From NCBI GenBank assembly GCA_045837725.1, contig JBEWZL010000257.1, positions 186,001-250,000 on the forward strand: DNA of 64,000 nt. Direction: 5' to 3'. Positions 1,596 to 58,433 of this stretch are shown piece by piece. The position numbers and the translations under genes are program-made. Source of the stretch: Vermamoeba vermiformis (Eukaryota). The notes under the pieces were generated by a model, which saw nothing but the letters and a program-made list of their open reading frames with translations, searched no databases and was not told the DNA's origin. Positions within the stretch are counted from its first letter, which is position 1, and the number at the start of each line of letters is the position of its first letter.

Positions 1596-3667
1596 TTAAA
1601 AGTCCTTAATGATCATCAGCGTCTCATCGAGCTGCAGCAGTGAATTGAGCAGCAAGTCTTGAATGGTCTTCAATCGTTGCAGCGCTTGTTTGTCTTGATT
1701 CGATAGCACTGATATGTTTGTACCTTGCGCTTGCAACTTCTCTTCTTCTTCGGCCTTGTTGAGCACATCCGCGCTCAATTCCATGTGATGGAACAGACGC
1801 AGCTTCATATTGTGCATGGCCTTATATATCTCATTGACGAACAACAAATTGACTTGTTCTCGACGCACTGACCACAAGTAAAATGTCTTGGCGGGCTGAT
1901 GGTCTGCCATCTTGGGCACCTCTTGCAATTGCACCACGTCCTTGCTGAGCATCTTGTACAAGCGATCGCGCGTGTCTTTCACGGGGATCATTGCCAGCTC
2001 AGAGATTTGTTTCTGTTCCACGAGTCGTTTCGTCAACAACAAGCGCCAGATCCGCAGACTGGGCGCACCGAATTTGTGCAACACAATCGACTCGACGGAC
2101 TTCTGCTTGAGGATGTCAATCAGCGCGGTGGCATTGATCGTGTAGCCAGGCGGGGCGAGTACTTTGGTGAGAATGGGTGTCTTCTTGTCCTTGGCCATCA
2201 TATCGAGGTAATTGCGCAGTCGTTCGCTGCTCACTTTGAGCTTGTCGTGCTCCAAGATGCGTGCCATCAACTGCTCCTCACTCACCACACCTGTCAGCTG
2301 CGCATTAGCTTCGATTGCACTCGACTCCCGTGCATTACGTACAGTTGCTCGTGTCAGTGACGGGGGTGGTCGATTGTCGGAGACTAGGCTCGATAATATG
2401 AAACATCTCGCGTATGATCGTGGCCCCCACATTGTCAATCTTCTCTTGCACCAGCTGCACGATGAAGTCTTTGCGCAGCTCGTTCGTGAATCGATCGTAG
2501 TTCAGCGTCCACAACACTTTGGTGTCGTGCTGGCCAATCACGTGTCAGTCATCTCTGGTGCTATTTTTAGTCGCATTGTACTTACGAAAGCACCAATCTG
2601 CTGCGGCGCAGTGTTGTTGTTCGTGTTGTTGCCGTGGTCCGTGGCACTCTCAGCCATGAACACGTCAATTGGTGCTGGGGCGTGTGACACTTCGTTGACT
2701 TTTGTTGACCGCACTGACAACTTGCTCTTTTTGGGCGCACGCTTCGTGTTGGCGACTGGTTTGTCGTCCTCTTCTTCGTCGTCGTCTTCTTTGCGGGCAC
2801 GTTTCTGACATAATGACAGGTGTCAATCAGCGACTTCAGCTAGTAGACAGCTACTTACACGACCACGTGACTTTGCAGGTGTGTTGTCAGCACTCTCCGT
2901 GGCCGCTACATTGGTCTTGCTCACTCCAGGGCCTACATCCACACGCACGAGATATTGTTCCGCAATCATTTGCGTGATCAGCGCGCGCACGTGATCTTCC
3001 AGGGCCTCGTCGAGCTCTGCACCCAGCGTCGTGCGGAACTCGATTTCGCGGGCCATGACGGCTTTTTCGAGCTCCGGCACTGAGATGCGTCCTGCTGCTA
3101 GCAATTCTTCCGCTACGAGCTCGCCCTGAATAATATTCAGTGAATAGGATCTCAGTGGCCTGCGTGGGACATATTTGCATCCGTCATTGTGGGAAAATTA
3201 AAAGAAAATATGTTGGCAGTTAAAGACAAGCATTACATATTGTAGAATTGTATTACTTAATTTAAATAATATTATTTTAATTTTTTAATTTTTTTGACTT
3301 ACGCGATCGCCGAACCGCTCTTTGGCGTGCAGAATAAACTTCGCAAACCGTATTCTAATATTGACGGTGTCTATATTAACTGAGTAGTGATTGATTGCGA
3401 TATCTTTAACGATACTCTCAGTATAAAATATGAAGTTGTGCTGGATGCCGACCAATAAACTCTGTCGGATCTCGTCTAGAGTGAGTTGCGTCTCTTTACG
3501 CAATTGATCTAGAGTCATGCGGCCTTTGGTCATTAATTTACCACATACTTGCTGCAATAATAAAATGAGCTGTTATCAACGAGTGTTGGTAGATTTGTTA
3601 CCTCAACCAAGTCACCGAACTGCTCTTTGATAATATCTCGGGCTATTTTTATCTTGTAATCTGCCAT
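1596..3667 (-). CDS. POLR3C: RNA polymerase III subunit RPC3 (RPC82/POLR3C), multi-exon
   Basis: MADYKIKIARDIIKEQFGDLVE...LLVGIQHN N-terminus; C-terminal KFGAPSLRIWRLL...EQKQISELAM...LQEVPK...TFYLW. Confidence 0.92.
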
Positions 3668-3840
3668 GGGTGCAGCAATACTATTGTACTTGATATGTGT
3701 TAGTTCTCGGCAAGCAAGGAGACAAAACAAAACGGGTTTTATTTCTAAGTTGAAATTCCCACGCACGTGACAGCCCTGGTAGATGTACCGCGACGATAAT
3801 ACAAAAAAGTTATTTAATACAGTTAATACTATGTACATGA

Positions 3841-10618: not shown

Positions 10619-12429
10619 ATGGAGACTAACGCGAACAATATTCAGCCAAGCGATTCTTCCACAAAGCAGAAGTTGACCGTGCTCAATATCGGTGTGCTCG
10701 GGCACATCGACAGTGGCAAGACGTCGCTGTGTGCTAGTCTGTCCACGGTATTGTCAACAGCTGCACTGGACAAATCTCCGCAGTCTGTTGAGCGCGGCAT
10801 TACTCTTGACTTGCAGTTCTCTGCTTTCACGCTGGATGTGCCTGAAAATTGTTCAAATCCGAATGTCAGCGGCCACAAAAAAATTCTTGTTTCACTAGTG
10901 GATTGTCCTGGCCATGCGTCATTAATTCGCACTATTATTGGTGGTAAGTCAATTGTACCTGATTTTTAATTGAATTTTTGAATTAAAATTGAATTTATTT
11001 AACTCTCGCACTATCCTAGGCGCGCAAATCATCGACATGGTGCTGCTCGTGATTGATGTCACCAAAGGCATTCAAACACAGACCGCTGAAGGCATTGTGG
11101 TCGCAGAAGTGACTACCAACAAGATGGTGATCGTACTCAACAAGGTGGATCTGCTGCCGCCGAACGAGGCTGAAGCGCGCATGACGAAGGTCACTGCGAC
11201 CATCAAGCGGGCACTGGCCGGCTCCAAGTTCGCCGATGCCCCCATCATCCCCTACGCCGCACGTCCCGCGAGTCCCACCACGAGCAGTGCTGCAGCGCTG
11301 CACGGCGCCATTCTCGCAGCAGCACCGAGTCTGACGCGCACGGACACGGACAGCAAGCACTTCTTGATGCTCGTCGATCACTGCTTTGCACTCAAGGGCA
11401 AGGGCACTGTCTGCACGGGCACGGTGCTGCGCGGAAGTATCTCCGTCGGTCAGTCCGTGGAATTTCCTAATTTGGGTGAGACCAAGAAAGTCAAGTCCAT
11501 TCACATCTTTCACGAGCCACACGACACGGCGCAGCAAGGTGATCGCATTGGCATGTTGGTGACACAACTCGACAGTCAACAGCTCGAGCGCGGCTATGCG
11601 TGCTATCCTGGCGCCATTCACAGCGGCGTGACGCACGTGTTGAGCAGCGTGCAGCAGATCAAGTACTTCAAAGCGGACCTCGCCTCGCAACAAACACTGC
11701 ACGTGACCATTGGCCACTACACCACCACCGCACGACTCGTGTTCATGAACAGTGCCGTGGACCCGAGCAGCAGTGAGTTCGGGGAGTGGTCTGCGCACGA
11801 GTATCCGTACGTGCCTGTCCTGCCCAGTGTCAAGAGCACTGACGCGCAAGTGACACCTGTCAAACACTATCTCGCACTCATCGAGTTCGACAAGCCCATG
11901 TTAGTGCCACCACATGCGCTATTAATAGCCTCAAAGCTCGACGCAGATATTCGTAAGTAGATCTCACTTTGACACGTGTCACGCGCTGACAGTCACGTGA
12001 CAGATCTGAATCAGTGTCGCATTGCCTTCAGCGGTCACGTGATCAGCACGCTGCAGCAGTCGCAGCTCGCGGAGCTCAAGATCTTCAAGACCAAGCACAA
12101 GCGCGGCGAGATTGAGCGTGTAAGTGCACATGTGTTGTCACGTGCCAGGGGACTAACCGCGACAGATGAATGACGAGCGCAATGCCATTGGTCGCAATCT
12201 GTTCAAGAAAGAGACGGACATGAACAAGTTCACCAACATGCACGTGACCATTGAGCGCGAGGGCAGCGTGATTGCGCGCGGTGTGATTGAGGGCGCATTC
12301 GGCAAGAGCGGCAAGTTCAAAGTGCGTCTCAGTCACGTGGAGAGTGGCGTGAGTGTGCAGCCACGTGATCAGATTGTACTGGCACTCAAACGATACACTT
12401 TTGATAAGACCAAGCGCAACTATCAGTAG
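10619..12429 (+). CDS. EEFSEC: Selenocysteine-specific elongation factor eEFSec, multi-exon
   Basis: NIGVLGHIDSGKT, AALDKSPQSVERGITLDL, VDCPGHASLIRTIIGGAQIID, GIQTQTAE, DHCF, SKLDADI...CRIAF, GVIEGAFGKSGKFK. Confidence 0.95.
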
Positions 12430-12648: not shown

Positions 12649-15136
12649 ATGGACGGACTCATTCCAGTGATCAACAAGCTGCAAGATGTATTCAATGCCG
12701 TGGGGGCAGACAGCATTGACTTGCCGCAGATCGTCGTGGTGGGCAGTCAGTCCTCGGGCAAGAGCTCCGTGCTCGAGAACATTGTAGGACGCGACTTCTT
12801 ACCGCGCGGCAGTGGTATTGTCACGCGCCGTCCTCTCGTCTTGCAGCTCATTAACATTCCGTGGGATGGCAAGCCCAAAGGTAATTTTCGTAAATTAAAT
12901 AAAAATACGCAAAATAATAAGCACCCTCGCATCAATATCCTCGACTAGTCCGCGCACTATCCGACTATTTAAAAATGCAAAGACAAGACTGACGCGGTCG
13001 TTGACAGAGTTTGAAGAGTGGGGTGAATTCTTGCACTTGCCTGGCGAGATATTCCACGACTTCCGCAAGATTAAAGAGGAAATTGAGCGCGAGACTGATC
13101 GCCTCGTTGGCAAGAATAAGGGTGTATCACCTGTACCCATCAACTTGAAGATCTACAGTCCGCGCGTGTTGAATCTGACGCTGGTCGATCTGCCGGGCAT
13201 TACGCGCGTGCCAGTCGGAGATCAGCCCTCGGACATTGAAGCGCAATTGCGTCGCATGATCCTGTCGTACATTGAGAAGCCCAACAGCTTGATCTTGGCC
13301 GTCACTCCCGCCAACACAGATCTCACCAACAGCGATGCACTGCAACTCGCGCGCTCAGTGGACTCAGAGGGCACGCGCACGATTGGTGTGGTGTCGAAGA
13401 TCGATCTGATGGACAAGGGCACGCACGCGCTGGACATTCTGCAGGGCCGCGTGGTGCCGCTCAAGCTGGGCTTTGTGGGCGTGGTGAATCGCTCGCAGCA
13501 GGACATCATCACGGAGAAGAGCATTCAGGAGAGTCTGAAGGACGAGCAGAAGTTCTTTGCCAATCATCCGCTCTACAAGCCCATCGCGCACAAGTGTGGC
13601 ACGCCCTATTTGGCCAAGACACTCAACAAGCTGCTCATGAACCACATCCGCAACTGTCTGCCAGATCTCAAGATCCGCATCAACAAGATGCTGCAAGATG
13701 CCAAGCAAGAGCTGCAGAGCTATGGCGACCCCCTCTACGACACGCACAACAGTCAGGGGGCACTGTTGCTGCAGATCCTGACCAAGTTTGCCAGCGATTA
13801 CAAGGACACGATCGATGGCAAATTGACGGACAAACTTTCAGTGAACGAGCTGTACGGTGGTGCGCGCATCAACTACATCTTCTTCGAGGTGTTTGGCTCG
13901 TGCTTGTATCGCATGGATCCGCTGGACGGACTGACGCTGAACGACATTCGCACGGCCATCAAGAACGCCTCGGGTCCGCGCACCTCGCTGTTCGTGCCCG
14001 AAGTGAGCTTTGAACTGCTGGTGAAGAAACAGATTGAACGACTGCTCAAGCCCAGTCTGCAGTGCGTGGACTTGGTGTACGATGAACTGCAGCGCATAGT
14101 CTCGGAGGCGGAGACCAAAGAGCTGCTGCGCTTCAACAATCTGCGCGAGCGCGTGATCGATGTCATGAACATGATGCTGCAACGAGCACGCAAGCCCACG
14201 ATTGAGATGATACAGAATCTGATCAACATTGAGCTCGCCTTCATCAACACGAGTCACCCGGACTTTGTGGGCAGCGAGGGTGCCATCACCCAAGTGATCG
14301 ATGGACTCGCGGAGAAGAAGGTCAAAGATCGGCAGAGTGTCGTCACTGCACTGCCTGTCAGTCCCAGCGTGCCCGTGCCCAACACCAATCAGCCCGTGAC
14401 ACCTGTCACACCTGTCAACCCTGCCAGTGCAGTGCCCGTGCAGCCAGTCAATGCCCAGTCCGTCACACCCTACACCGCCGAGTCACAGTCGCGCAGTGCG
14501 GTGAATGGACAGAGTGCCAGCAACAATCCGCAGTCCTCCAACTTCTTCTCTGCCATATTTGGCAAGCAGACCAGTCCTGCAGCCACACCCAGCACCAGCT
14601 CCACCACTGCGCGCAAGACCAAGTCGGGCTCAGTCTCCTCCACCGCACCGCAGAACACAGTCAACACAGCCCCCGTGAACAACGCGCCCAATCCCTACTC
14701 GCAGTCACCCACCAATCAGTCCATGCTCGCGTCATCCGTCACGCAGAGCACGCAGACACTCAGCAGCAGTGGCTACAGACGACGCGATCGCTTGGACGAA
14801 GTGCCTTCAGTGCTGCAAGCTGGATCTGTCACCACTGACCGCGAGCAGTTTGAAACTGAATTAATTCGCTCGCTGCTCGTGTCTTACTTCAACATTGTGC
14901 GCAAGAACATTCAAGACACCGTGCCCAAGTCCGTGATGCAGTTCTTGGTAAACAGATCCAAGAATGACATTCAAAACGAGCTGGTTAAGTCACTTTACAA
15001 AGAGGAGCTGTTTGACGAGCTGTTGGAGGAGTCGCCTGCCATCGCCTCTCGTCGCAAGGCCTGCAAACAGATGGTAGATATGCTCTCTCGGGCGCAAGAG
15101 ATCTTAAATGAAGTTAGAGACTTTAACATCAAATAA
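12649..15136 (+). CDS. Dynamin-related GTPase (Drp1/Dnm1/Vps1-like), 2 exons
   Basis: [38 protein letters not shown], middle domain, S/T/P/N-rich variable insert, C-terminal GED ([19 protein letters not shown]). Confidence 0.96.
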
Positions 15137-16860: not shown

Positions 16861-16880
16861 AGTGCTATTCACAATTTATT

Positions 16881-19641
16881 TTACAGTTTTTTCTTTTTGA
16901 CAGGCAGGCTAGCATAGTCAGAAGATATTTTAAACGAGAGCGTCATGTCTTCACTTGATTTCCAATAATACGTCTTTGCAGTGGCCAAACTCATATTGTT
17001 GTCCAACTCCTTGTCGTGACAGCAAATGGTCAAGTACTCCTCAGCCGTGCAAGTGCGTGACTCGTCACTGCAGTGCTTGGGCAGTTCTAGTCCAAGCTTG
17101 TCTTTGACGAGGTACTCTTTGATTTTCTTGATCTTCATTATGCGCAGTGTGGAGAATCTGCTCTTCAATCTGCGACAGGAATGGTCAGTCATGCGGACAA
17201 ACAGCACTGTCGACATCGTGCGTTGAAATTACCCGACACTAATCTTGTCATCTTTGCAGGTGAGGAAGAAGCTGATTTTGTTGTTGGTGCGTGATGGCAC
17301 TTTGTTCTATTCAGTGAATGTCAGCAAGTGTCAAACGTGTCAAACTTGTCAAAAAGTGTCACTCACCAGCAGCAGACAGTCCAATACCCAATTAGGAATC
17401 ATGCGCTCGCGGCCAGTGAGTTCACCAATCGGTGCTCGGAACAATAGTCGTCCCGTGCCCTCTTCGGTAATCATCACGTGACCCTGTGCTGGCAGTGTGA
17501 AAGGTGCCACCACAGGAGCGATCTCCGCCTCGGACTCTTCGGAGCTGTCAGACTCGTCACGACTCGAGCTCGGAGTTTCGGATCTATTATTAGCTGCTGT
17601 TCTATTATTAGTCTCGGGTCGTGCAGTGCCCACCACGACACCAGGGCCCAATCGTGCCGTGTATGTCGTGCTCTGATTTGCCTCGCTGTTCTGTGGCACG
17701 GTGTCACGTGGTGCGGAGGGAGTGTTGTCACGTGCTTCAGTGCTATTATTAGCCTCAGCTTTGTTCTCCACTCTCGCACTCGCATCAGTGCTATTAATAG
17801 CTTCACTCTTGCTGTCACTCTCCTCGCTCGTGCTCGCTTTGTAGCCCGTCAACCAGTGCTCGAACAGTGCCTTGAGCGTGTGTTGACCGAGATTGACTGG
17901 ATGACACGTGTCAGTGCTGCACAGGACTGCACACACACAAGGGTGCACTTACCGACAGGCTCGTCGTGTTCCTTGTCCCCCGGTGGATAAGTGACCTCCA
18001 GGCCTGCATCCGAGGCATACACCTCCGCGCTGAAACACTGCGGGAAGTCCAAGTGCAGTGTGAGGGCACCAGTGCGCGTGTCCACCGAGTACCAGTTGGG
18101 GATGCTCGTCTGCACATCGAGGCACTTGATCCACTCCTCAAAGCTGCGCTCGCCACTCTCGCTCTTGAGATCGCGCTCACACACACCGCGCGTAATGTCC
18201 CACAGCTGCATGGTGCCAGCACTGTCTTGCGTGAGCACGTGACGGCGATCACTGAGCAGATGATGACGAATCAGCCCTGGTCGACCACCCTGACTCCACA
18301 CGGGTCCTGTGCGCAGTGGCACCAGTGACTCGCGCGTCATCTCGCTGTCTTCAACGAGCAGACTGTTGCTATTATTGGCCGCACTATTGTTAGTGGTGGT
18401 GTTGTTGGTGTTGTTCTGCGCATCGATAGAGAATGCACTTGGACTTGTGGCCAGCAGCACCATGCCGTGTGGCACTGTGCCACTCGATTCCGAGTCACGT
18501 GGATCCCACAGCGACATGCCCTGTGTGGTGGAGACCCAAAGACGCGTGTCAGCATCACGTGACTGCGGTGCGAGTGCCAGCACGTGCGCACTCTCCACGC
18601 CAACGAGTGTGCTCTGGTGCGTGGTGAGGTGGGTGCGGAACAGCGCGCGATCACGTCCTGCAGAGTAGAGCTGTGTGTCGTGCAGTGCGAGGGTCCACAC
18701 CGAGTCCTCGTGCATGAGATAGGTGTGCTGACACTTGTGCACGCGCAAGTCCCACACTTTGACCTGTCCGTCGCTGCTGCCACTGATCACCGTGTGTCCC
18801 TCCGCGCTGAACACGAGGGCGCGCACATTGTCGCTGTGGCCCTTCAGCTTCGCACTCCGCTCACCACTGCGCGTGTCCCACACTCGAATCACCGTGTCCG
18901 TGCCTGCAGCAGCGAGCAGTGGCGTGGTGTCAGCGAGGGCGAGTGACCAGAGCGAGGCACGTGACTTGGCGCAGTACTGTGTGGCACTGTGGTGCGGACT
19001 GCTCGTGTCCAGTTCACTCGGGTCCCACAGATAGGCACAGCCGTCCAGACCCGCTGAAGCTGCGTAGCCGTGCACCGAGGACCACTTGAGAGCTTTGACG
19101 TAGTCGTGGTGCCAGGTCCACGTGTGCAACAAGCGATGCGAGAGGTCAGGATCTGTGTTCCAGAGCTTGACCGTGCTGTCTGAACTGCAGGACATTACTG
19201 GTGCAAGAGTACTGTCAGCATGCGTGTCCTATGTGTCTGCAGTCGATTACTACTCACATTTGCAGCCATCAATGAGCACAATGTCATTCACCCAGTCACT
19301 GTGGTGTTCGTACGAGTGGATCAGTTCTGGACTCGCTGTAAACTCGTTCTGTTCATTTTTATATTAGCATATTCGATTGTTCGTATTCAATAAGCTCGAA
19401 TGTTCTCGTTATTGTCTCAAAATAATTTTTTTACCTTTTTGCTTGGATCTAATTTCCACGCTTTAATTGTTGAGTCGCGTCCAGCTGAGTATAGTACATT
19501 ATTTACATCATCCAATGTGATTGCATTGACACCAAAGCAATGTCCTGCATTGAGTTGCGCTGGATGTGGAATGGAATATGATACACGATTCTTCTTGACG
19601 CGGATCAGCGCAGAATTGCCGGGTAGAAGAGGTCGTGCCAT
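16881..19641 (-). CDS. WDR48: WD repeat protein 48 (UAF1, USP1 cofactor), multi-exon
   Basis: LYSAGRDSTIKAW, HSDWVNDI, SCSSDSTVKLW, HHDYVKAL, KLKGHSDNVRAL, SIPNWYSVDTRTG, NLG...LKALF, C-terminal LRIMKIKKIKEYL...MSLATAKTYYWK. Confidence 0.94.
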
Positions 19642-23402: not shown

Positions 23403-28799
<5,397 letters not shown>

Positions 28800-30538: not shown

Positions 30539-33500
30539 ATGGATGAATCACAGTCGCAGAGTTTCAAAGACATTTGGCACGAGATCTATTCCTTCATCCA
30601 TTATGCTCACTATGGCACGCCCAGAAAATTGCAAATAATTCTGCGGCAAAACAAAGGAAAATTTTTGAGTTTATTGAAGAACAATGTACGTATAGTAGCG
30701 GCTCAATATGGCCCTTGCTAATTAATTTAAAAAAATTAACACTTTTTCTGCAGCCGAAAGATCCTGAAGAACGCAAGAAGGTCGAATCAGGAGAGATAAT
30801 ATTGCACGGTGTCAGACGACGATTGTCCGCAGAGTTCATTAAACAAGTAATGCAGTCTCGTTAACGTGGTTGGATCGCAGCTAGCATTACTAACACGGCC
30901 TTTGTTATTATTCAGGTGATAGCACTGAGTGACGGACTGAATTTGAATGAATTCGATTGCGTGGATTTGTTGTGGAGAGCTTTTCAACAGGTACACTGCG
31001 GTTCAGTTCCTGTGATGACCACTGATATTTAATTTCCTAATTTAGCAATCCAAATATCTCGGACTGGATCCGAAAGACATTGCAGAGCTGTTGTATTTCC
31101 AAGAGCGCAGCTATTTGATCAACTCGATTACACTGCTGATCAAGGTCAGTGCGCATTACCAAATATAGTAACTGTCACTCACCACGCAGCAGGCGCGCAA
31201 TGACTCGACACTGCAGGACAAGGCCGATCTGATCGTGCAATTCAGCAACGAACTGCTGGTGGACGGACTGGCCAGCAACATCTTGAAGCTGCTGCAGGAC
31301 GACAAAGATCTCAGCAAGCTGCCCGAGTCACAGCGCATGCACCGCGTCAAAGAGCGCAAGAGTCTGTGCGAGCTGTTGTTCTACATCTACTACGTGACCA
31401 CCATCACTGGCGACGAATTGACACGTGTCACTGCTGTCACGCGCGAGTACTCGCAGCTGATCAAGAGTGCCCCAGCAGACACGCCCCTGTATCAGATCGG
31501 TTACATATTGACGACCACCATCATCTCCGCACTCGACACCTCGTACGAGCTCGTGGATCCGCGCACTGGCCTCAAGACTGGCAATCACCTCGCTGATCAG
31601 GCTGACTTTGTGCGCAAATTTGCAGAGCTCTTGAATGGCGAGTGGGCATTCAGTAAGTGTCAGAACCAAATATAGTAATATCATACTGACGGGAAATTCA
31701 GCGGGATTTCAGAGCGTGTTGTTGCTGGCCTGGAGCATCTTCTTGCTGAGCAGCGGACACGAGACTGATGAGCGCGTGGAGAGCACGTGCAACAAGGCCA
31801 TCTCTCTGGTACGTGCTGCTATTTTTAGGCACCAATCCGAGAGTGATTAATTTTCATTTGCAGAATTTCTCCGTTGCCCTGCGCCAAGTGATCGAACAGA
31901 CGAGTTTCAAGACCGATGCGGAGAATTACGATCTATTTATAGGCGTGTACGACGATCTGATCGTCAATTTCCTCACAAAGATGTCACCCAAAGTGCGCGA
32001 CATGAAGAACGACGAGGAGGAACAGTACCGCGCGCTCGAGACCTATGCGCAGTACGGCATTGGTACCAAGCCTGGTGTGTAGCACTCCATTTGACACCTG
32101 TCACATGTCATTAACACCTGTTTAGAACCGCCCAAGCACAACTTTGAGAATCTCATGCTGTTGATTGCGGCACTATATAAGGTAAGTGGCATGCAATGAG
32201 ACTTGCAGGTTAGCGTTTGACACCTGTCACAGAATCAACCAGCCCTGGCACTCAAATACTGGACGGGACAAGGAGCGCATCAACGATTGCAACAATTTAT
32301 CCGCTTTGCAGGTGACATCGTGATGGAGTACTTCTTCGTGCCGTACATTCGCATGTTGACGGCACTCGCTTCGGGACCGGAGTGCGCCCTATTTGTAAGT
32401 GTTGCGCCAGGCCACGGAAACAGTTCACTGAACAATATTTGCAGACCTTTGAATTCGTGAACAACAACGGCAGCAAATACATCTCGTGGAACAATTTTTT
32501 CACGGTGCTGGCAAGATATTACGAAGATTTCCAAGAACAACAGCCCGAACAGAGTCAGAACTATCGACCAGGGCCCAAGATACCCAAGGCCATCAAGCCG
32601 GAGGATGTCGTTGCCCTCGAGGCCATTCTCGATCTCATGGCTGCCGTGCTGCGCGAGTCCGAAGAAGTGCGCGGCAAGATGCAAGAGAACAGCAGCTGGC
32701 ACGCGGTGGAGATGTTCTTTGGACTGCTCGGCTGTCCCGTGCCACCCTCGCTCAAAGCCAAACTCGCGCATGCTCTCGCTCAGTTCGCCAAGTCTCCTGG
32801 CCTGGTCAACAAGGTAAGCTGCAAAGATCTCACGTGTGTCATCCGTACTGATTCACATTTGCAGATCTGGTCGCTGTTGGAGGCCAGTCAAGTGCTGCAA
32901 ACAGCGCCGCAGAACAAAGGAGTGCGCGAGGGCGGCATCAAATTCGAGCTGAGTGAGATCGAGTCGCCGAATGAGGAGTACCCGTTTGTCGCGGCATTCA
33001 TGGAGCTCATTCGACAACTGCTGCACTACCTCTACGTGCCGGGGGACTTGGGACTGCCGCATCGCGTGCCTGGCATTTGGCCATTCATCGACTTCATTCG
33101 CGACGAGGTCTTCTTGCGGTAAGTCACGTGACTCATGTGCGTGCCAGCTCACGCGCTATTTTTAGCTTCAACAATCGCGGCTACAAGCACCCCACCGAGA
33201 AGTGGAAGATTGCGCGCCAATGTTTGGACATCTTCTACACCCTGCTAGAACAGTACTCGCCGCTGCCTGAAGACTTTGAGACCCGCGTGATTGAAGTGCA
33301 GGGCCGCACTTATCCCGCGCAGAAGTCAGTCGGCTACGAACTGATGCAAAGCTTGTTGAAGCAGTCAGCGCTGCTCAAGAAGATCATGTACATCATCTCT
33401 TACGGCGTAAGTAGCGATCAGTCACGTGGTGTGCGGTCACTGACACGTGTCATTTGCAGATCAAGAACTTTGATGAAGAGCGCGTGAAGGGCGATGACAA

Positions 33501-36500
33501 CCAATTCGAATCATCTTTGCAGCTATGTTTGCAGATTGTACAGCTGGTGCTCGAGAAGCAAGGCGAGTTCCTGTATCTGAACCAGTCCGCTGCCTCGCCT
33601 GTCGTGCTCACGCCCCTCGACCAAGCACTGCTGCTCGATCGCTCGCTGATTGTGCACATCGCGCAGTTCATTCACTATCCCTACAACAGCGAGATCAATC
33701 TGCTCTCCGTGCGCATTGTGCACCTGCTCAGTCTGCGCCAAGAGAAGCACAACAAGCTGGTCGGAGTGCTGCACGAGGCCGGTCAACAAAAGTCCATGAT
33801 AGCTGGCTATGTCGAACAGCTCGAGACCGAAGAGGAGTATCAGAGCGAGGGTGCGGCTGATGCGATGGACACGGAGAGTGAGGGCACAGAGCTCGCGCCC
33901 CTCGATGCACACCACGACGAGAGTGCGCGATCAGTGCGCATGGCCATCCTCGATCTGATGGCGAGTGAGGTGCACAAGCCCTGGCCCAATCTGGTGCACT
34001 TCTTGCTCGGCTACGACATTCAACTGCCCATCCGTGCGGGATATCAGCCCGATCCGACCGATCAGCACCGCACTCTGCGAACGTGTCTGCACGCCATTGT
34101 CGATCTGTTCCACGACCCTGAATTCACCACGCACCACCCACAACTCGCTGAGCGGTGCATGCACTTGTTGTACGCCATGGCGCGTGACAGCACACTGATG
34201 CCCATGCTGATGCGCTATCTCAAGAGTCCCAGCACGGACTTCTTGCGCCGTCAACTGCACGCCCTCGATCGCGAGCTGAGTGCACCACAACGCGTGGCAC
34301 AGCTGCACTACCGCGCTTGGCTGCTCAAGACTGTGGCCCTGGAGCTGCACACCACGGCCACGAGTGAACAGCGCACTTCGAATGCGGCACTGCTGGCACT
34401 GCTGTTCGGCAACACGGTGCCGGAAGCTGGAGGTAAGTGGCCGAGTGCCAGTCCATGATCAGTGCACTGACTGCTGACAGATGAACACGTGGACGAGCTG
34501 GACGACTATCACATGCTGCCCCAAGCACGCATGAAGATGCGCGAGTTGTTGGACGGTAAGTAGCACCCTGCACTCGCGCCCTGCCACTGACACCTTGCCA
34601 GTGCTGGACAATGCCCCCAGCGATCCCGAGCCCCTGCAGAGTCCACTGCTGCACAAGATCCGACTCGACGAGTGCACGCAGATCGATGAGCGCGGATTCC
34701 CGCACATTGACATTGAACTGCTGCACGCGGCACTCAACGACGCACACCTCGCCAAGCCACAGCACGATGAGCTCGCTGTGACGCAGCCCAATGCGCAGAG
34801 TGCACTGCGACGCGAGATAGTGGCACTGCTCAAGTGTGCCATCGCGTGGAATGAGGTCTATGCCATATATGGTGCGATGTATCACATGTTCGAGGCGTGG
34901 CGTCAGATCCTGGAAATTTCACTGAACGAGTGCTACGAACAACTGCGCGGCGAGACAGTGGTGTACGAGATGATACAAGTGCTGTTGGCACTGCTCACTG
35001 CGGAGAGAACGCGCACGGAACTCGCCACGGCTGCGAGTCAGTCCTTGGTGGCACTGGTCGCCAAGCTGCGCGTCTCCTTCCTCAGCTACACGGTCAATCT
35101 CGCGGGGGATGCGAGCTTCAATCCCGAGAACTACTTGCCCGTGGAACAGCTGCACACCATGCTGCGCGGCATTGTCACCGCACTACTGCGCAGCGAGTCC
35201 ACGCCAGCAATGCGCGGCAATCTCTACACGGTGCTGCTCAACTACCTGCAGTTCACGCACACCCCTGCCCTCTCGCTGCACACGCACATTCAGCACCAGG
35301 ACAAGCTGGTACGTATCACCTATATATATATATCTGTTAGTCCGTACTCATCGCAGTGCAGTGGGTGGCAGAAGAGATCGAGTCGCAGCACAAGCGACTG
35401 ATGCAAGGCAACATGCGCATCTTGGACGAGCTGGCAGGCGACAAGTTGATTGAAGTGCTCGCCAAGGACGCGTCAGACTCCTCGCCGCTCTGGCGCTCAG
35501 TGGCATTCTCCACCCTCGATCTGCTCGTGCACTACGACGCACAGCACAAGTGGCTCAACTACCTCACGCACCGCGGCTACTTGCGCCAATTCCTCGAAGA
35601 CATTGTGCGCCAAGACGAGGCACTGCTCTCGCTGCTCACCACCAGTCCCGAGTCCCTCACGCTGCTCTACGTGTTCGAGTCCAAGCTCTCGCTGCTCATT
35701 CGCATCGCTCAGACTGCGCGCGGTGCCTCGTACTTGTTGGAGAATGGTGTCGTGCGCGTGCTGTCACAGGCCAGCTTCATCGATCAGCGACCCGAAGAGT
35801 CCATGGTGGACATCAACACGAGCTCCTGGCTGCCCACCGTGATGGACCGCTACGAACAGCTGCTGTTGCCCGTGCTGCGCCTGTTTGTGGCCCTGTTGAC
35901 TGCCCTGCCGCACCACACCGATGCAGCCTCGCAAGTGCTCGATCTCATCACGCAGCACAGCGAACTGTTCTCAGCCGTGCTCAAGGACCGTGCTCCAGTG
36001 ATCACACTCGTGTCCCTCAACGAACTCGCCCTCACCACGCAGCTGTTCTATCTCCTCGCACACCACGATGCACTGCTCTATGACAAGGTAAGTCCGCTCC
36101 TCGATGCTGATTGTGCACGCCACTGACGAGTGCTGCAGCTGGACACGCGCTGGGTCAAGTATCAGAATCAGATGCTCAATCTGCTCTCCAAGTACAGCAT
36201 CCGAGAGCGCTGGAGCAGCAAGATCCGCACTCCGTCCTCGAGTCTCGCGACACCGCTCACCGCGCAACAGGACAAGCACAAGCACAAGCTGCTGCTCGCA
36301 CGTGAACGCGAACAAGTGGAAGCACTGGTGCGCACTGTCACGGGCAATGTGGTGGCATTCTTACGCGTCATCACCGATCCTCCGCGCGGTACGTAGCTGA
36401 CACGTGATATTCATGACACGATGACAGGTGTTGACATGTTGACAGTTGGTGGCACTCGCAGCGCCAAGATCGTGTTCACGCCGAGTCTCGAGCTCGACTT

Positions 36501-37250: not shown

Positions 37251-40200
37251 TTACAGGTTGATGTCTGCCTCCACAAGCAACATCTCAGCGCGGCGTTCGA
37301 GTCGAGTGCAGATCTGCTCAAACGAGGGTCGCTCAGCTGGATTCTGTCGCAAGCAGTCCTTAATCAACAGCTGCATGCTCGTGTCCCACTCTGAGTCGAT
37401 TGGTGGCACGAGTCCCTTGTCGCGAATCTTGAATGCGACGGACATGGGATCGATATTCAAGTGCGGCTCTTGGCGGCTCATAATCTGCAAGCACTGATTA
37501 GCTACTAGCGACTTCAAAGGATAATTGGATATAGGCAGCACTCACCTCCCACATGACGATACCAAACGACCACACATCAGTAGCCTCGCTGTAGAACTTG
37601 TCGTCGCGCAGTGATTCAGGAGCCATCCAGCGCACGGGACCCAGATCTGACTTGGTCGTGCCTTGACGCGTGTCATCGACCAATCGCGACAGGCCAAAGT
37701 CCGAGATCTTGGGCTGACCACCTGACAGCTGTCAAACGGGTCAGTGTCACGCACAACGGACCAATCAGCGCACTACGTACCAAAATGTTGCGTGCAGCGA
37801 GATCGCGGTGAATGATGTTGTTCTTGTGCAAGTGCAGCATGCCTCGTGCAATGCCCGAGATGAGATCGAGCTGCACGGACAGCGAGGGCTTGAAGTGCGC
37901 GTCTTGCACGAACTTGTCCACACTGCCGCCCTCGCAGTACTCGAGCACCAGCACGGGATAGGGCCCGTCAATGCTCACACCGAGCAGTCGCAGCACATTG
38001 GGGTGGGGACGCAATTCACTGAATGATGCAAAGATCAGTTTGTGACACGTGTCATTTGCAGATGTCAAACTTACACCATCAGACGCGCCTCTTTCAAGAA
38101 GTCTTCACTCGTGCCAACGGTGCTGATCTTGAGTGCCACTTGCGTCTGTTGCCACTCGCCTTCATAGACTTTGCCGTAATCTCCCGAGCCAATCTCGCGA
38201 CTGAATTTGAGTTCTTTGTACGGGATGGTGAAATTGTGCTGCACCACTGAAGCGACGTTCGGTGTGCTGGGAATGGTCGTGTATTTAGTGGGCACTTCAC
38301 TCGAGGGCTGTTGTTGAAAGGTCAGTTCCGGTCTTATTAACTAAGCACTGCTGTACCTCTGAAGTGGCCTTGCTAGCATCACTCGCGTCTGCCACCTTTG
38401 TGCGCTTTCTACGTCTTCTGCGCAGGAACAGCACTAAAAATAGAATCAAACCAGCAGCGACAACAGCAGCGATGATTGGCACGACAATGTACAGCACGAC
38501 ATTGAAGTCATTTTGCGGCGTGACCACTTGCTCGCCTGACCCTGTGTCGGGGCTGTTGACGGGCGACGGAACTGTGAGAGGAGGCTCAACGATGATGTCC
38601 GAGGAGATGGGGGGCTCGCCAGGCAGTACGGCAATGGGTGTGTCAGGTGTCGGGACCACGCAGTCACCACCTGAGGGGACATAGCCCTGCGCGCAATAGC
38701 AATTGATTGTCGTGTTGCCAGCGACCACTGCGGCCCATTGAGGACCCACAGGACAGGTGCAATTGTTGCTGCAGCCATAGCCGCTGTCGCACTCCTCGTC
38801 CGCATCTCTGTAGCCGTCACCGCAGTGTCGCAGCCACAAAAATGCACCAGTGACACGTGTCGCTGAGTTGGTGGTGGCCTCCCAATTGATATTGACACGC
38901 CAGGGACTAGCAGCGGAGATGTAGGCCTTGCTGACTTGCACATTGGTGTCATTGGCGAGCACTTGTGGTACACTCAGTTGCGTGCCTGATAGAAGTTAGC
39001 TCTAGTCCAGTACTACTACTACATGGCAGCGCCGTACCGAGTGCATCGCGTTGTTGCGCGTAGAGGACAGAGCCGTCGGTCCACGTCACAATCAGATTGC
39101 CACTGCCCATGGGTGGCGTGGTCGTGGAAAAAGAGGCTGACTGGCTGCTCGTCACGACCCACTTCGCCGAGAGTGGCACAGTGCCGTTGAATGCACGTGC
39201 CCAGAGACCAGTTGAGCTCTGCGCAGTGACAATCCAACTCGCGCCACCCAGTGCGACAGTGTTGTGAATGACATTGCTGGCTGCATCGAGTGCCACGAAC
39301 TCATTGGAGAGCGGCGTAATGGCACCGCCACTGCACAATCTGATCAGTACGTGTCAACATGTCACAAGTGTCAAATCTCTCTCACCTGAATTGAAGTAGT
39401 CTCGCATTAATACGACCATTGTAGTACCATGTTGAAATAAATTGACCGTTGTCCAGCGCTGCAATGCGTGGTTTGAATGAGATCGCGTTGTTGGTCACTG
39501 CAAAGGCGTCACTTGCAGCACTGCCATCAGGGTTGAATACGCGCACTCGCACGTCAAATTGATTCAGCAGCACGAGCACGCCGAGCAGATCCAACAGCTG
39601 TGGATTGTGTTCCCACGACACGACAAAGTGCCCCGTGCTGAGTGCGGCAACATCAGCGTAGCGCATGTCAGCACTGGTGCTCAACACTTTGACGTCCTCC
39701 GCGATCACTTGATCGTTTGTGTACATCACAATGGTGAAGCGCACTTCGTAGATGACGGACAGGAAGATGTCGTCCTCTGCGTACACGAGCACCAATCTGT
39801 CGCTCAGTGCTGCTACAGCAGGGTACTCAGTGTTGCGTTGTTGTGAACCAAAGTTGACGACAATGTTCTCGAGCGAGGTGGAGTTGAAGAGAGAATAGGC
39901 GATTTGATAATTACCCCCATTGTTGTTGTCGTTCCACACCACCGCTGTCAAACCATTCGCGGAGTGCGACTGCGGCGAGAGTTGTGTTGACACTGCTGGA
40001 TTGGCGGCATAAGTGTGCTCTGGTCGCAAGAACTCTGCCCCTATAATATTGTGGTCAATAATATCGCTTAATTAATTAAGAAACAAAGAAGATTTTTTGT
40101 ACATGTCTCGGATGTCACGCTTAATTTATGTGAGACGATATACTGATAGAAAGGCACAATGTATACTGATATCTAATGCTTATGGAGACTATCATATATC

Positions 40201-40963: not shown

Positions 40964-42949
40964 ATGGAACGCGATCTGAATAATTCGAACGGAGATATAT
41001 GTACGAGTAGCATATTATAATTAGCAATAATATGGGCAGTAATTGACCGATCTATTAACAGCTAAAAGCTCCGCGCCACTACAGCTGCCGGATTTAAGTT
41101 TTGAAGTGACAAAATTTCTCAACTCGTGGAAGAGATATACTCAACGCACTATAGTATTAACGGCGTATGTAATAATTTATTGTTGCGAATAATATGCGTA
41201 ATTTCAACGTGAAATTCGGGCATTAAATATTCAATAGAATTACGTTTCAAAATACCGGTCGTTAAATATACTCACAAATACAATTAATAGCAAAGGTATT
41301 CAAAACGTAAGGCGCAATGGTGAAGTTAGCTCGGTGCATCCGTACGATAAGATCAAGCGGATTGCTATGAAAGACGTAGAGACGTTTGTAATTAACTACG
41401 AGGACGGCAAGCACGATTATATATACTCGTCGCCAGTAAGTACATATTAGCAATGTTGTTAGCAAGTTGCAAGTAACGAACAACGCTACAGATCGGCATG
41501 CAAATAGTGCAAGAGATCAAGTCACGCACGAAGCTGCAGCAAGACAAGAAGAAGCTGCGCAGTACCAATGACTATTCTAAAGTGTTTCAAGAGAAGCTCG
41601 TGAGTACTGCATTGATTAGTGACTAGCATTCAGTGCTGATCGGTGCTGCAGATCGAAGAGGAGTGCAAAGACCAACAAGTCACCCACACTAGCAACAACA
41701 ACAATAATAATACTACGACTAAATACACCACTCACGAGGGGGCGGAGAACATACGTACTCGTGCTTCGACACGTGTGCGCAAAGCCCTCAAGTTGAGTGC
41801 GCTGCTCGGTGACAGCGAAGAACAGCGCATTGAACAGTACATCAGCAAGTGCGTCGTTGATACGCGTCACATTGATAGCATAGGCACCGATACTAACACG
41901 TGACTGTTGCAGAATTATCATGGACACCTCGACGTGTGAAGGCAAGGCCCTGGCACAGATGAACAGCGCGCACATCAGCGAGAACACCGCGACACTGCCG
42001 CTCAACATGCAACAGTTCTTGCTGTCACTGCGCGAGTCCATCATGCAGAACTATCTCGAACAGCTCAAGAAGCTCATGATTCAGACTGCGGAGGTGAGTG
42101 ACTTTGACACCTGTCACCGGTGACTAATCACGTGCCAGTCCAATGATCCGAGCAAGAATGCCGCGAACAGCACCTCCCTCGCGAGTGTGATCTGGTCGTC
42201 GCTCGAGAGACTCGTGCTCGTGCGGCTACACACGCGAATATGGCGCGCAATCAAGAGCACCACGCACGACACTGACGACTTGATTGCACGCAAAAAGAAT
42301 GCAATTCTGTGCGAGGGCTGTGCTAATCTGCTGAGCGATGTGCCGGTAAGTGTTTGACACCTGCATGAGCTCACTATTGACACGTGTCACAGGAAAAATT
42401 CCGCCACACCCAAGACTGGCAGGTGGCCATTGCAGATCTGAATGACGTGGACAAGAGCATTGAGCCCAGTCAAAAACTGACCGCCATTCTCGATGCCGCC
42501 AGAGCTATTTACGACTCAGTTCGACTGCGCTACGGTCACGTGATTCTCAGCGGCGATGACTTTCTGCCGGTAAGTGAAGTGACACCTGTCAAATCTGACA
42601 CTTGACTCACGTGACTTTGCAGATATTTATCTACGTGGTGGTGAACAGTGAGCTGCGCGATCTCGAGACTACAGCGAATTACATATGGAACTTGTCCGAG
42701 CCTGAGGCCCTTAGTGGCGAGGGTGGCTATTACTTGACGGTGTTCTGCTCCGCGATTGAGTTCATCAAGAACTTCGAGGCCTCATCGACGAGTACCTCCG
42801 TCACAGCCAGCACCACGAGCACACCGCGCATCAGTCAGCCGCCCTCACCGCGCGCAGTGCCGAGCATTGACTCGACCACGAGTGAGAGCTCGAGTATTTA
42901 TCAAGGGGCGATGAAAGATCTCACCGCGCATCTGAAGACACCGCTCTGA
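40964..42949 (+). CDS. VPS9-domain (Rab5-family GEF) protein with probable N-terminal PH-like domain; start uncertain
   Basis: PSQKLTAIL...LSGDDFLP / IFIYVVV...LSGEGGYYLTVFCSAIEFI (VPS9 motifs). 5' exons FEVTKFLNSWKRYTQRTIVLT / KGIQNVR look PH-like. Confidence 0.82.
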
Positions 42950-55821: not shown

Positions 55822-55922
55822 TTTTCTATATCTAGTGTAGATAAACTTTCCATTGTATTCAGAGCTTCGATAACATTATTTATTCGCGCAAAAAAAGAAA
55901 TACAGTAATTATCAAGGGAGTC

Positions 55923-58433
55923 TTATTTGTGTTCTTCATCACTGTCCATAAACAGCTCGTCGTCCATTTGATCAATCAACTCTTGGCGGTACTCTTCGAA
56001 TGTGCCGTCGTAGACTTGTACCTTTTGATCGCCGCACACCCAAAGCTCATCGCACACTTTGGAGATCAAGCGCTGATCGTGACTGATCAACACAACAGCG
56101 CCTTGGAACTCAGCCAATGACTCGCTCAACGCGTCAACACTTTGAATGTCCAAGTGATTCGTGGGCTCGTCGAGCAACAAAATGTGAGGCAATTCGAGTG
56201 ACAACGTGCACAAGGCGACACGTGACTTTTGACCACCAGAGAGCAGTTGAATGGGCTGCAAATGAGTCTTGCCGCTGAGGCCGAACTTGCCCAATGTGTT
56301 ACGCACTTCTTGGGGCTTGAGTTCGGGGAACTTCTTGCCAACAAACTCGACAGGCGTGTCAGTCATAGTCAACTGATCGACAAAGTGCTGCGAGAACTTG
56401 GAGACGCGCAGCTTGCGGTTGCGAATGATCTCACCGCTGACCGGGTTCAAGTCACCCAAAATCAAGTTCATCAATGTGGACTTGCCAATACCGTTAGGAC
56501 CCACAATAGCAACACGACTCTCCATACCGACATTCAACTCGACCTAAAACAGACATTAATATTTGACACGTGTCATGAAATCAGGCTTACGTTGCGGAAC
56601 AAAATCTTTTCAGGCGAGTAACCAAAAGTGACGTCTTTGATCTGCACGACAGGAATGCTGAGTGGTCCAGGGTCAGCGAAAATGAACTTGACGCTGTACT
56701 CTTTGTCATCGCGCTGCAACAATCCCTCTTTTTCCATCTTTTTCTTCTTGTCGTTGGCAGTCTTGGTCTGTTTCTCTTGCAATTTGTTCTTTTCTTTCTC
56801 TTGCAACTTGTATTTCTTGTCGCGTTGCTTCTTCTTGTCCAAAAAAATCTTTTCGAATGAGTCGTAATCGCCCTTGTAGTAGTCAAGGCGTTGTTTGTGC
56901 AAGTGAATAATGTCTGTCACAATGTAGTTCAAGAAATCTCTGTCGTGTGACACGACCTAATCATTCGATTAGTACCGATAACTGACAATAGAGGCACATC
57001 GGTGCGGTACTTACGAGCAATGTTTTCTTCCACTTGCGCAAATAGGCTTCGAGCCAAATGACGGCGTTCAAGTCCAAGTGATTGGTCGGCTCGTCGAGCA
57101 ACAACAAATCAGGGCTCAAGAACAAGGCACGGGCCAAAGCGATACGCATACGCCAACCACCGCTAAAACAGCCTATTAGCCAAGACCATAGCAATCAGAC
57201 TACTATTGTATTGCACGTACCTAAATTTCTTCGTGGGCATCTTCTTCATTTCTTCGGTGAATTGCAAACCAGACAAAATAGCTGAAGCACTGTGACAATG
57301 ACACGGTGAGTTAAAGTGTCACAAATGCGAGTAATTAACGACACTACGTACCGGCCCTCAGCTGAGTAGGCATTGATTTCTTTGAGTCGCTTGTACACTT
57401 CCATCAAGCGGTCGTTGGCTTTGAAGCCCTCGTCAGTGTTCTCAGCGGACACCTTTTTGAGCTCTTTTTCTTCGGCCAACAGTTGCAATCGCTCTTGATC
57501 GGCTTCCAACACAGCGTCCAAGGCGAGAGTGTCAGTACCTTCGACCTGCGGGGTGGATCACGTGCGTTAGTGGTGCATCAACGGGTGACAATGTAACTGT
57601 GAAATATTTACCTCTTGTTCGACGTGCAGAATGCGAATGTGCGCGGGGATGGGCAAGTGACGTTGCGAAATGTGTTTCAACAAGGTACTTTTACCTGCAA
57701 ATAGTACTGTTAGTTACTGCAATATTAAAGACCTGGATCTGCGCGAGGATCCAGTCTTGAGTGATAAGACATACCCATGCCGTTAGGGCCAATAAGACCG
57801 TATTTGCGACCGTATGAAATTTTCAAGTCAGCGTCGTGGAAGAGAACTTTGCCGTGATAGGCCAAAGTGAACTTTTCGACTTGGATGTCCTTGGTGTTGG
57901 ATGTGATCACACCCTTTTTTGCTTCATAGCTCTGCAAAGCACTCTCATTTTGTTCACGTGCAATATAGGCCTCCTTAGACTCGACTTGTTGGCTAGCTCC
58001 GTAGTTAGGGTCGAGCATCTGGCGCTGTTCCTCCGTGAGCTTGCCCTAAGAGATCGAACAAATGTAAGTATTTTCTAAAATTTTAGTAATTAAATTCTTA
58101 TCAATAAATTCATACCGCTTTGCGCAATTTGTTTAATTTTCTCAAATCCTTTTTGGTTAATTTTTTCTGGCCTCCAGGAGCAGTCTTATCGTCGTCTTGA
58201 CCGTCTTCACCGCTCTCCTCATCACTGCCATCCTTTTCAGGGTTCTCTTGTGGCTCTTTCTTAATTACATTGCCTTCCTCGTCGAACTCAGCATCCGAGT
58301 CGTAATCCTCTTCAGGTTCGGGTTCATAAGAGGGCTTCTTTTGCTGCTCCTTCTTCTTGGGCTCTGATTGTTGCTTGCCTGCGCCCTTCTTGGCGTTGGC
58401 AGCATTATTATTGTTCTTATTTTTTGAAGACAT
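55923..58433 (-). CDS. ABCF-family (TM-less) ABC ATPase, multi-exon
   Basis: Two NBDs (GPNGMGKS...FSGGWRMR...[19 protein letters not shown]...LSGGQKSR...[10 protein letters not shown]); charged N-terminal extension; no TM segments. Confidence 0.95.

Follow-up and report, generated by a model that had tools for sequence, protein, structure and literature searches.

An exact palindromic 12-mer concentrated in the short introns of a 64-kb stretch of Vermamoeba vermiformis DNA

Background

In intron-rich eukaryotes the branch site is, as a rule, a short and degenerate sequence. Motifs of the CTGAC and CTGACA type are ordinary among species with short introns: CTGACA is the commonest branch 6-mer of Cryptococcus neoformans, with a median intron of 55 nucleotides (nt), and GACTGACG is an extended motif described in Ostreococcus (Irimia and Roy 2008, PMC2483917). 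Here we analyze a window of 64,000 nt from Vermamoeba vermiformis (assembly GCA_045837725.1, contig JBEWZL010000257.1, positions 186,001 to 250,000; coordinates below count from the first letter of this window), in which a perfect inverted repeat of TGACA around two free central bases, hereafter the dyad, recurs mostly within very short introns. Its likeness to the branch consensus of short introns (ACTAAC, ACTGAC, CTGACA) lies in its 5' half, CTGAC or TTGAC, at 10-20 nt before the 3' splice site. None of the branch motifs is palindromic as presented in PMC2483917, whereas the dyad adds its own complement after 2 nt and is also found outside the branch zone.

Two further kinds of described system bear comparison. 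In Entamoeba, of the same supergroup, an intron signal has co-evolved with the U1 small nuclear RNA (snRNA; Roy and Bowser, bioRxiv 10.1101/2022.06.08.495308), which offers a precedent for a lineage-specific intron signal acting via extended snRNA pairing, as we propose below for AC-N-UG of the dyad and U2. There the signal is the 5' splice site, its partner is U1 and the snRNA gene has been identified, whereas pairing of the dyad with U2 is hypothetical. Introner families, marked by similarity reaching to both splice boundaries and by lineage-specific positions, also place a repeated sequence in many introns, and those of algae and dinoflagellates include some with inverted repeats and one splice site (Gozashti et al., bioRxiv 10.1101/2022.06.06.494994). 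Unlike these, the dyad shows similarity confined to 12 nt, and 16 of 16 intron positions compared are shared with a relative; the main text of the introner study, supplementary tables apart, mentions no Amoebozoa, amoeba or Vermamoeba.

The draft genome of V. vermiformis was described as having 3.5 introns per gene, in an article whose text, as far as it was available to us, gives intron counts only and contains neither "motif" nor "palindrom" (PMC7125106). A literature search yielded no description of a palindromic intron element, and the 12-mer string itself was encountered only in two unrelated virology papers. Intron-resident motifs of other kinds include the G-triplets of short human introns and the plant intron-mediated-enhancement motif. 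Like the dyad, these are short, intron-enriched words that are spread over many unrelated genes, redundant and prone to turnover, but they are non-palindromic, are not exact over 12 nt and do not double as a branch site. Among DNA sites, TALE-homeodomain dimers recognize the palindromic TGACAG-S-TGTCA, and CACGTG is the E-box or G-box. The dyad shares with them the inverted TGACA halves, the 2-bp centre and, in 11 of its 21 copies, CACGTG itself, whereas dyads are mostly TGACAC, are intronic rather than intergenic and are asymmetric with respect to the transcribed strand.

Results and discussion

The dyad is a discrete, intron-concentrated element

The pattern TGACASSTGTCA occurs 20 times in the window, as against a mean of 0.05 and a maximum of 2 in dinucleotide shuffles. 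A preliminary description of this DNA had listed 20 such sites and had put the chance expectation far below that count; our pattern search recovered every one of its coordinates and found none extra under the same pattern. With any centre allowed (TGACANNTGTCA) there are 21 copies, the additional one being TGACAAGTGTCA at 26816, and the centres on the + strand are CG (11), CC (6), GG (2), GC (1) and AG (1). From these centre counts, the half-sites are TGACAC in 31 of 42 cases, TGACAG in 10 and TGACAA in one, and the core is CACGTG in 11 dyads and CACCTG, CAGCTG or CAAGTG in the other 10. TGACA and TGTCA are separated by two bases at all 21 sites, with no site at spacings of 0, 1 or 3-8. Furthermore, exact copies (21) outnumber those with one mismatch (10) in the window, of which the dyad and its sub-words are the most frequent 8-, 10- and 12-mers. 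Among palindromes with two 5-nt arms and a 2-nt centre, TGACA reaches 21 copies and the next best arm 3, the total being 100 against 62 expected.

Chance, or the base composition and word usage of introns, might be thought to generate such numbers, given that TGACA and CTGAC are frequent intron words owing to the branch site. Whole-window Markov models of orders 1, 3 and 5 predict only 0.26, 0.22 and 0.43 dyads, and models trained on the short introns themselves predict between 0.003 (order 0) and 1.2 (order 4) against the 16 observed there; the largest count in 2000 intron-trained simulations (orders 0-4) was 7. Therefore the explanation by which the preliminary description itself proposed to refute the element, a Markov background of intron composition, does not hold. 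This, together with the 20 copies against 0.05 expected, the exclusive spacing of 2 and the same excess in a second species (see below), leaves chance or composition already refuted, with almost no probability remaining to it. We also rejected a general palindrome-making mutational process, other palindromes of the same design being near expectation, and a CpG or ACGT context bias, the observed/expected ratio of CpG being 0.9-1.07 in every sequence class and ACGT showing no general enrichment.

To place the dyads we used RNA evidence, in the form of contigs of three RNA-like runs and a few raw RNA reads of a fourth, no lariat read among them, mapped on 26000-45900. At least 13 introns are confirmed after adjustment to GT..AG (among 15 of 64 joints listed); the introns seen in RNA are GT..AG and 45-57 nt long, apart from two longer ones of 105 and 115 nt, and four of the 13 carry a dyad (Table 1). 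The remaining introns come from an ad hoc dynamic-programming gene finder, which recovered 10 of the 13 RNA-confirmed introns and missed two that apparently lie in 5' untranslated regions (UTRs) and one through a wrong acceptor. Ten predicted "introns" longer than 135 nt were excluded from the statistics as likely gene merges, and three corrections were made by hand (27542-27624 to 27578-27624, which is RNA-confirmed; 11900-11992 to 11953-11992; and 17897-17952 restored). The resulting set comprises 67 short introns totalling 4,063 nt, or 6% of the window, and all counts drawn from it inherit the errors of the gene finder. A branch-like YTRAY lies 8-22 nt before the 3' end in 53 of the 67, mostly as CTGAC, CTAAC or CTAAT.

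By this gene model 16 of the 21 dyads lie in the 67 short introns, four are exonic and one straddles an acceptor, and none falls in the approximately 25 kb outside gene models. Introns thus hold about 4 dyads per kb and exons 0.11 per kb, with none elsewhere, which bears out the earlier placement of the dyads mostly in short introns; of the 11 copies that had been listed as exact, 10 are intronic, again as first described, the sole exonic one being that at 31419. Within the intron set the dyad is restricted to the shortest members: 16 of the 45 introns not exceeding 56 nt carry it, as against none of the 22 longer ones (P=0.0007). The corresponding counts in the first 43.5 kb are 15 of 42 and 0 of 11 (P=0.023), and the AT-richer right third of the window holds a single dyad. 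Adjacent introns both carry one in six pairs against 2.4 expected (P=0.017; P=0.029 in the GC-richer part alone), with runs over four consecutive introns in a CYFIP-like gene, three in a VPS9-like gene and two in a Nup205-like gene. The host genes are unrelated and of housekeeping type, encoding CYFIP-like, Nup205-like and VPS9-like proteins, a GTPase, a WD40 protein and a kinase. Tandem duplication of exon-intron units was considered for the CYFIP-like gene and rejected, its protein being non-repetitive there. The dyad is, in sum, a discrete, real and intron-concentrated element. Its interest lies in the fact that a single exact 12-mer palindrome is found in roughly one short intron out of four, and in 16 of the 45 no longer than 56 nt, often as the sole possible branch site; it also provides a practical feature for gene prediction in Vermamoeba-like genomes.

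Old introns with dyads that come and go

A single metagenome contig of 8,398 nt (L001) contains the same Nup205-like exon at 86% amino-acid identity and is collinear with 28197-36618 of the window at 72-80% nucleotide identity. It holds three copies of TGACANNTGTCA where 0.03 are expected, and the dyad is common to the two species and partly conserved. All 16 window introns that could be projected onto this contig, four dyad-bearing ones included, have GT..AG at the same positions in it (one relative, 8.4 kb). In window-anchored columns, identity is 84% in exons and 58% in introns. Of the four aligned intronic dyads, that at 32092 is kept with its CC centre changed to CG, that at 29332 corresponds to a variant with a spacing of 4, and those at 32218 and 33441 lack the second half in the relative, where the orthologous introns keep a TGAC branch-like site. 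The relative has a dyad of its own, TGACATGTGTCA, in the intron orthologous to 33119-33165, which is without one in the window, and presence of a dyad brings no gain in intron length. Because the relative shares the intron positions, keeps the dyad at 32092 and varies the others, the comparison indicates that the introns are old, that dyads turn over inside them and that at least some are held by selection.

The same contig covers one exonic dyad, that at 31419, which lies in a 26-nt coding block, TTGACACGTGTCACTGCTGTCACGCG (31414-31439; about 3182-3207 of the contig), without a single difference between the two species. By simple arithmetic, 26 identical nt at a per-site identity of 84% have a chance of about 0.01, and the block suggests constraint beyond that on the protein. 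As to further relatives, a scan of genome contigs with the CAND1-like protein and one of viral contigs with the dynamin returned none, and the metagenome scan gave one locus.

A splicing element built on the branch site is the favoured reading

On the sense strand all 16 intronic dyads read TGACAC-N-TGTCA, with N being G in 10, C in five and T in one, and the GG-centred form never appears in sense orientation among them. A pyrimidine precedes the dyad in 12 of the 16 but occupies the mirror position in only four (P=0.012). In the intron sequence outside the dyads, sense TGACA likewise exceeds TGTCA by 31 to 13 (P=0.0096), the ratio of 17 to 8 outside the branch zone not being significant by itself, and sense-to-antisense counts in introns are 10:0 for CTGACAC and 13:2 for TTGACAC. 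Enrichment that is intron-specific and sense-biased in this fashion is as for an intronic splicing enhancer, the asymmetries having P values of 0.01-0.03. The preliminary description had noticed that the first half doubles as a CTGAC-type branch site, and this is borne out: the CTGAC or TTGAC of the dyad is the 3'-most YTRAY of the branch zone in 10 of 16 introns and the sole candidate in nine, and in those 10 its distance from the 3' splice site, read on the sense strand, is within the range of a branch sequence (about 8-34 nt). Its further remark that copies also lie near 5' donors applies to six introns. The branch sites borne by dyads are of the weak TTGAC form in five of 10 cases, as compared with three of 43 among the others (P=0.004), and a GTRAGT donor is present in 10 of 16 dyad introns and 18 of the other 51, a difference from which we conclude nothing.

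We tentatively propose, rating it at somewhat less than an even chance, that in minimal introns the dyad serves splicing at the RNA level and is built on the branch site; on the question of DNA or RNA, it is RNA that is favoured. Whatever probability this and the other readings discussed below leave over goes to accounts not considered here. Under this proposal the shortest introns (40-56 nt) would carry the 12-mer as a discrete cis element that is read on the precursor mRNA. Based on its position and the lack of an alternative site, the 5' half, YUGAC-AC, would be the branch-point sequence, with the A of UGAC as the branch adenosine, and a dyad standing 10-20 nt before the 3' splice site would be the branch site of that intron. 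The added ACNUGUCA might then strengthen an otherwise weak TTGAC- or CTGAC-type branch site in one of two ways, through extra pairing with the U2 snRNA nucleotides just 5' of GUAGUA or through binding of a factor that recognizes the entire 12-mer. Copies nearer to the donor would offer further binding sites, much as an intronic enhancer does, and the element would be kept by selection while turning over between introns. The extension that would pair perfectly with these U2 nucleotides is ACUUG, and the dyad reads AC-N-UG. U6 snRNA contains UGACACG, which we regard as a probable coincidence. An Rfam scan of the window gave no hit and no snRNA gene. Among the three options of the preliminary description, a strand-symmetric splicing signal comes closest to this proposal, with the difference that the evidence favours a sense-strand reading and not a symmetric one. 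If the dyad is indeed read as RNA, it would show how very short introns are recognized and would add, for Amoebozoa, a second example of possible co-evolution between intron signals and the splicing machinery.

Several observations weigh against this proposal. The other six intronic dyads lie 29-46 nt from the 3' end, too far upstream for a branch site, with another YTRAY downstream, and the conserved dyad at 32092 is among these six. The preference of dyads for the branch zone is marginal (9 of 16 versus 5.4 under uniform placement, P=0.053), and branch sites outside dyads have no clear AC extension. The missing sense GG form could reflect plain avoidance of AG and GT inside introns, which could explain it alone, and the argument from GG is therefore not decisive. 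The four exonic dyads compare with 0.02 expected from codon shuffles, although three of them lie in repeats outside the codon-shuffle model; these three (11851, 14397, 29721) encode V-T-P-V in low-complexity stretches and that at 31419 encodes L-T-R-V, in its 26-nt block free of synonymous change. CACGTG is also enriched in exons (38 versus 12.9), and most intron calls come from the gene finder with its recovery of 10 out of 13. The main weakness is that the proposal leaves unexplained why the second half should be the exact complement of the first at exactly two bases' distance. In addition, perfect 5+5 arms, a single fixed spacing and a free centre typify a site bound by a dimer on double-stranded DNA and not a signal read in single-stranded RNA. 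Folding of the RNA offers no remedy, the dyad hairpin being weak (-2.1 kcal/mol) and dyad introns being no stabler than shuffles (mean z of -0.17 against 0.17). A hairpin reading, which we rejected, also fails to account for the missing spacings of 3-8. We class the dyad among extended branch signals or intronic splicing signals; its palindromic design is left unexplained by this, and it could be something more.

A possible double-stranded site for a symmetric dimer

The design just mentioned brings in a second reading, according to which the dyad is a double-stranded DNA site within gene bodies for a symmetric dimer of the TALE-homeodomain, bZIP/ABRE (abscisic acid-responsive element) or bHLH kind. 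Its intronic location would then follow because exons are constrained by coding, and the TGAC of copies near the 3' end would have been co-opted as a branch point. The strict half-sites, the invariable spacing of 2 and the variable centre (CG, CC/GG, GC, AG) are what such a site would show, and no other palindrome of the same arm length and spacing is enriched (21 against 3 for the next best). The clustering in neighbouring introns, the location of three of the four exonic copies within 700 bp of an intronic one, the very excess of exonic copies with the block around 31419 identical in the relative, and the enrichment of the related palindromes CACGTG and TCACGTGA in exons fit it as well. The distribution does not: none of the 21 copies falls in the 25 kb or so outside gene models, as against about 4 per kb in introns, and the 22 introns above 56 nt have none. 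In addition, flanks and centre are asymmetric relative to the direction of transcription, the housekeeping host genes are unrelated, and three of the four exonic copies belong to TPV low-complexity coding repeats. We consider this reading less likely than the splicing element, but a serious rival to it. Were it correct, a gene-body protein site found almost only in introns would be unusual.

The preliminary description had named TALE and bHLH proteins in particular. An inverted TGACA with a 2-bp centre, as in a TALE site, is indeed found, with 21 sites at spacing 2 only, and the symmetry, fixed spacing and free centre speak for that suggestion; the distribution and the sense-strand asymmetries speak against it, as do the half-sites, which are TGACAG, the consensus form, in only 10 of 42 cases and TGACAC in 31. 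Likewise, the CACGTG core of bHLH and bZIP sites is present in just 11 of 21.

Related words show patterns of their own. The exonic excess of CACGTG is about 3-fold over codon shuffles (for example 4016, 12035, 17474, 18555, 24448 and 42536) and that of TCACGTG about 7-fold (17 versus 2.4), and GTCAC is sense-biased in exons with 73 copies against 32.7 expected, GTGAC having 37 against 44. CACGTG is near expectation outside gene models, and its excess is gene-specific, the exons of the dynamin, CAND1-like, isocitrate-lyase-like and malate synthase genes showing none. A different palindrome, CAGATCTG, has 11 sites versus 1.9 expected (4648, 6060, 6978, 12001, 25882, 27942, 32862, 37309, 37642, 42433 and 54656); at 12001 and 32862 it spans a 3' splice junction (CAG/ATCTG, the slash marking the junction), and 42433 looks alike. 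AGATCT occurs 27 times in exons against 7.7.

Possible copying or pairing between introns

The abundance of exact over one-mismatch copies, the clusters in consecutive introns and the gain and loss of dyads between two species could also arise from copy-and-paste or templated changes in the DNA, for example through ectopic gene conversion between introns, template switching or a tiny mobile module, which would spread a functionless sequence tolerated in introns. Some pairs of introns do share more than the dyad: 11953 and 42094 agree at 33 of 39 positions ending at the 3' splice site, 33407 and 38019 (reverse strand) at 21 of 21, and 27321 and 33407 at 26 of 27, seven exon bases included. We take these extended matches as a weak hint of copying, most of what is shared beyond the dyad being consensus of the splice site (TTGCAG) and frequent words. 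In an all-against-all blastn comparison of the 67 introns with 20-nt flanks, nearly all matches were 14-27 nt long and centred on the dyad, and outside the dyad the mean local score is 10.4 for dyad introns and 11.8 for others. No target-site duplications or terminal repeats are evident in the intron listing, in which no formal duplication search was made. The absence of a general palindrome excess is contrary to template switching, one dyad is conserved across intron sequence otherwise near saturation, all 16 intron positions compared, four of them dyad-bearing, are shared, and introns with a dyad have not gained in length. A copying process thus appears improbable to us.

The same comparison bears on the suggestion, also made in the preliminary description, that the 12-mer is the footprint of an intron-generating element: the shared intron positions and the turnover of dyads in the relative argue against it, and similarity does not extend beyond the dyad. 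Accordingly, neither similarity to both splice boundaries nor lineage-specific positions, the marks of introners, is found, and the inverted repeat of the dyad is internal to the intron, with its halves abutting.

The palindrome could alternatively reflect RNA-RNA pairing, in which copies in neighbouring introns form a 12-bp duplex with the exon looped out, so as to coordinate splicing or to favour the skipping of exons or the making of circular RNA. The CG form makes a strong self-duplex (-19.3 kcal/mol, versus -2.1 for the hairpin), CG is both the sole fully self-complementary centre and the commonest, exactness is favoured over near matches, and the runs of four, three and two consecutive introns (P=0.017) are in keeping with such pairing. 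However, five of the 16 sense copies have CC with no sense GG partner, which limits their pairing to -10 to -13.5 kcal/mol, four dyads have no second copy in their gene, these exons are spliced in the ordinary linear way in the RNA contigs, and the branch-site context is left without a reason. Pairing between introns is therefore highly improbable.

Finally, we consider a more speculative view, which we hold to be distinctly unlikely, in which the 12-mer is a self-complementary intron tag that acts double-stranded, either as a 12-bp RNA duplex, with a neighbouring intron of the same precursor mRNA or with a small RNA bearing the same palindrome, or as the DNA site of a dimeric factor coupling transcription to the splicing of minimal introns. 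If true, it would amount to a new layer of intron definition or to a mark of host transcripts, in an amoeba that commonly hosts giant viruses.

Individual dyads and other features of the window

The individual dyads, along with two introns built of direct repeats, are listed in Table 1.

Table 1. Dyads and direct-repeat introns in the window (a slash marks a splice junction)
Feature	Position	Strand	Context
Dyad	2814..2825	-	Sense TGACACCTGTCA; predicted intron 2805-2858; no branch-like site lies 3' of its TTGAC, which is 18 nt from the 3' end
Dyad	11851..11862	+	Exonic, CC centre; V-T-P-V in GTPase-like gene
Dyad	11970..11981	+	Predicted intron starting at 11953; acceptor 11992 or 12003
Dyad	14397..14408	+	Exonic, low-complexity linker of dynamin (VTPVTPV); stretch kept in a relative's transcriptome protein
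Dyad	17902..17913	-	Predicted intron 17897-17952; sole branch-like site, 14 nt from the 3' end
Dyad	26816..26827	-	The 21st copy, absent from the preliminary description; sense TGACACTTGTCA; predicted intron 26811-26861
Dyad	27079..27090	-	RNA-confirmed intron 27078-27126, ending ...TGACACGTGTCAG/
Dyad	27327..27338	-	RNA-confirmed intron 27321-27367; sole branch-like site
Dyad	27583..27594	-	RNA-confirmed intron 27578-27624; sole branch-like site
Dyad	29332..29343	-	Predicted intron 29295-29348, adjoining the donor (GTGAG/TGACA...); spacing-4 variant in the relative
Dyad	29721..29732	-	Exonic, TPVNE repeat, V-T-P-V; not conserved in the relative
Dyad	31419..31430	+	Exonic, L-T-R-V, Nup205-like gene; within 26-nt block identical in the relative
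Dyad	32092..32103	+	Intron 32075-32125; separate TTAAC branch site downstream; kept in the relative (CC to CG), rest of intron diverged
Dyad	32218..32229	+	Followed by CAG, the 3' end of predicted intron 32182-32232; relative keeps TTGACA without the dyad
Dyad	33441..33452	+	Predicted intron 33407-33459; ACTGAC aligns with ACTGAC of the relative, there without second half
Dyad	37723..37734	-	GC centre; straddles predicted acceptor of intron 37729-37780 (TGACAG/CTGTCA)
Dyad	38043..38054	-	Middle of predicted intron 38019-38074; separate CTGAT branch site downstream
Dyad	42105..42116	+	Position +12 of RNA-confirmed intron 42094-42138; separate CTAAT branch site downstream
Dyad	42378..42389	+	Followed by CAG, the 3' end of predicted intron 42346-42392; sole branch-like site
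Dyad	42580..42591	+	Position +11 of predicted intron 42570-42622
Dyad	56564..56575	-	Predicted intron 56544-56590; lone copy in the AT-richer right third
TGACA direct-repeat intron	36389..36445	+	RNA-confirmed; largely sense-strand repeats; best-conserved intron against the relative (44/58)
TGACA(C) direct-repeat intron	17307..17366	-	Predicted; five sense-strand repeats

The two direct-repeat introns and a third, 39331-39385, contain three to six sense-strand TGACA(C) repeats at a spacing of 3-6 nt. At 29701-29733, a near-dyad and a dyad stand in tandem within the TPVNE coding repeat; contigs of two runs match these 33 nt only, with unlike flanks, which suggests strain variation or a paralogous repeat.

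The window itself is nuclear DNA of an amoebozoan, with GT..AG introns of typically 40-60 nt and with long open frames for a dynamin, a CAND1-like and a Nup192/205-like protein, kinases, WD40 proteins and a malate synthase. The best named relatives of the dynamin come from Amoebozoa, and a protein 93% identical to it is labelled Vermamoeba vermiformis. A compositional break separates positions 1-43000 from about 43000-64000, GC falling from 0.47-0.57 to 0.43-0.47; to the right of it, the introns are AT-richer (0.375 versus 0.47), many are longer, their branch sites are mostly CTAAC or CTAAT, and only one contains a dyad. The RNA-confirmed introns 28301-28415 and 28494-28598 (- strand; 115 and 105 nt) are AT-rich and have no dyads; both precede the start codon predicted for the CYFIP-like gene and probably belong to a 5' UTR. 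One contig (run X1) joins 26078 to 27168, skipping 1089 nt with GA..GG ends off the splice sites, and may be chimeric or represent a rearranged form. Parts of 26500-36400 are present at 95-99% identity in small RNA-like runs carrying about eleven organism labels from 12 studies, a spread consistent with a free-living amoeba that is widespread and enters many samples as a passenger.

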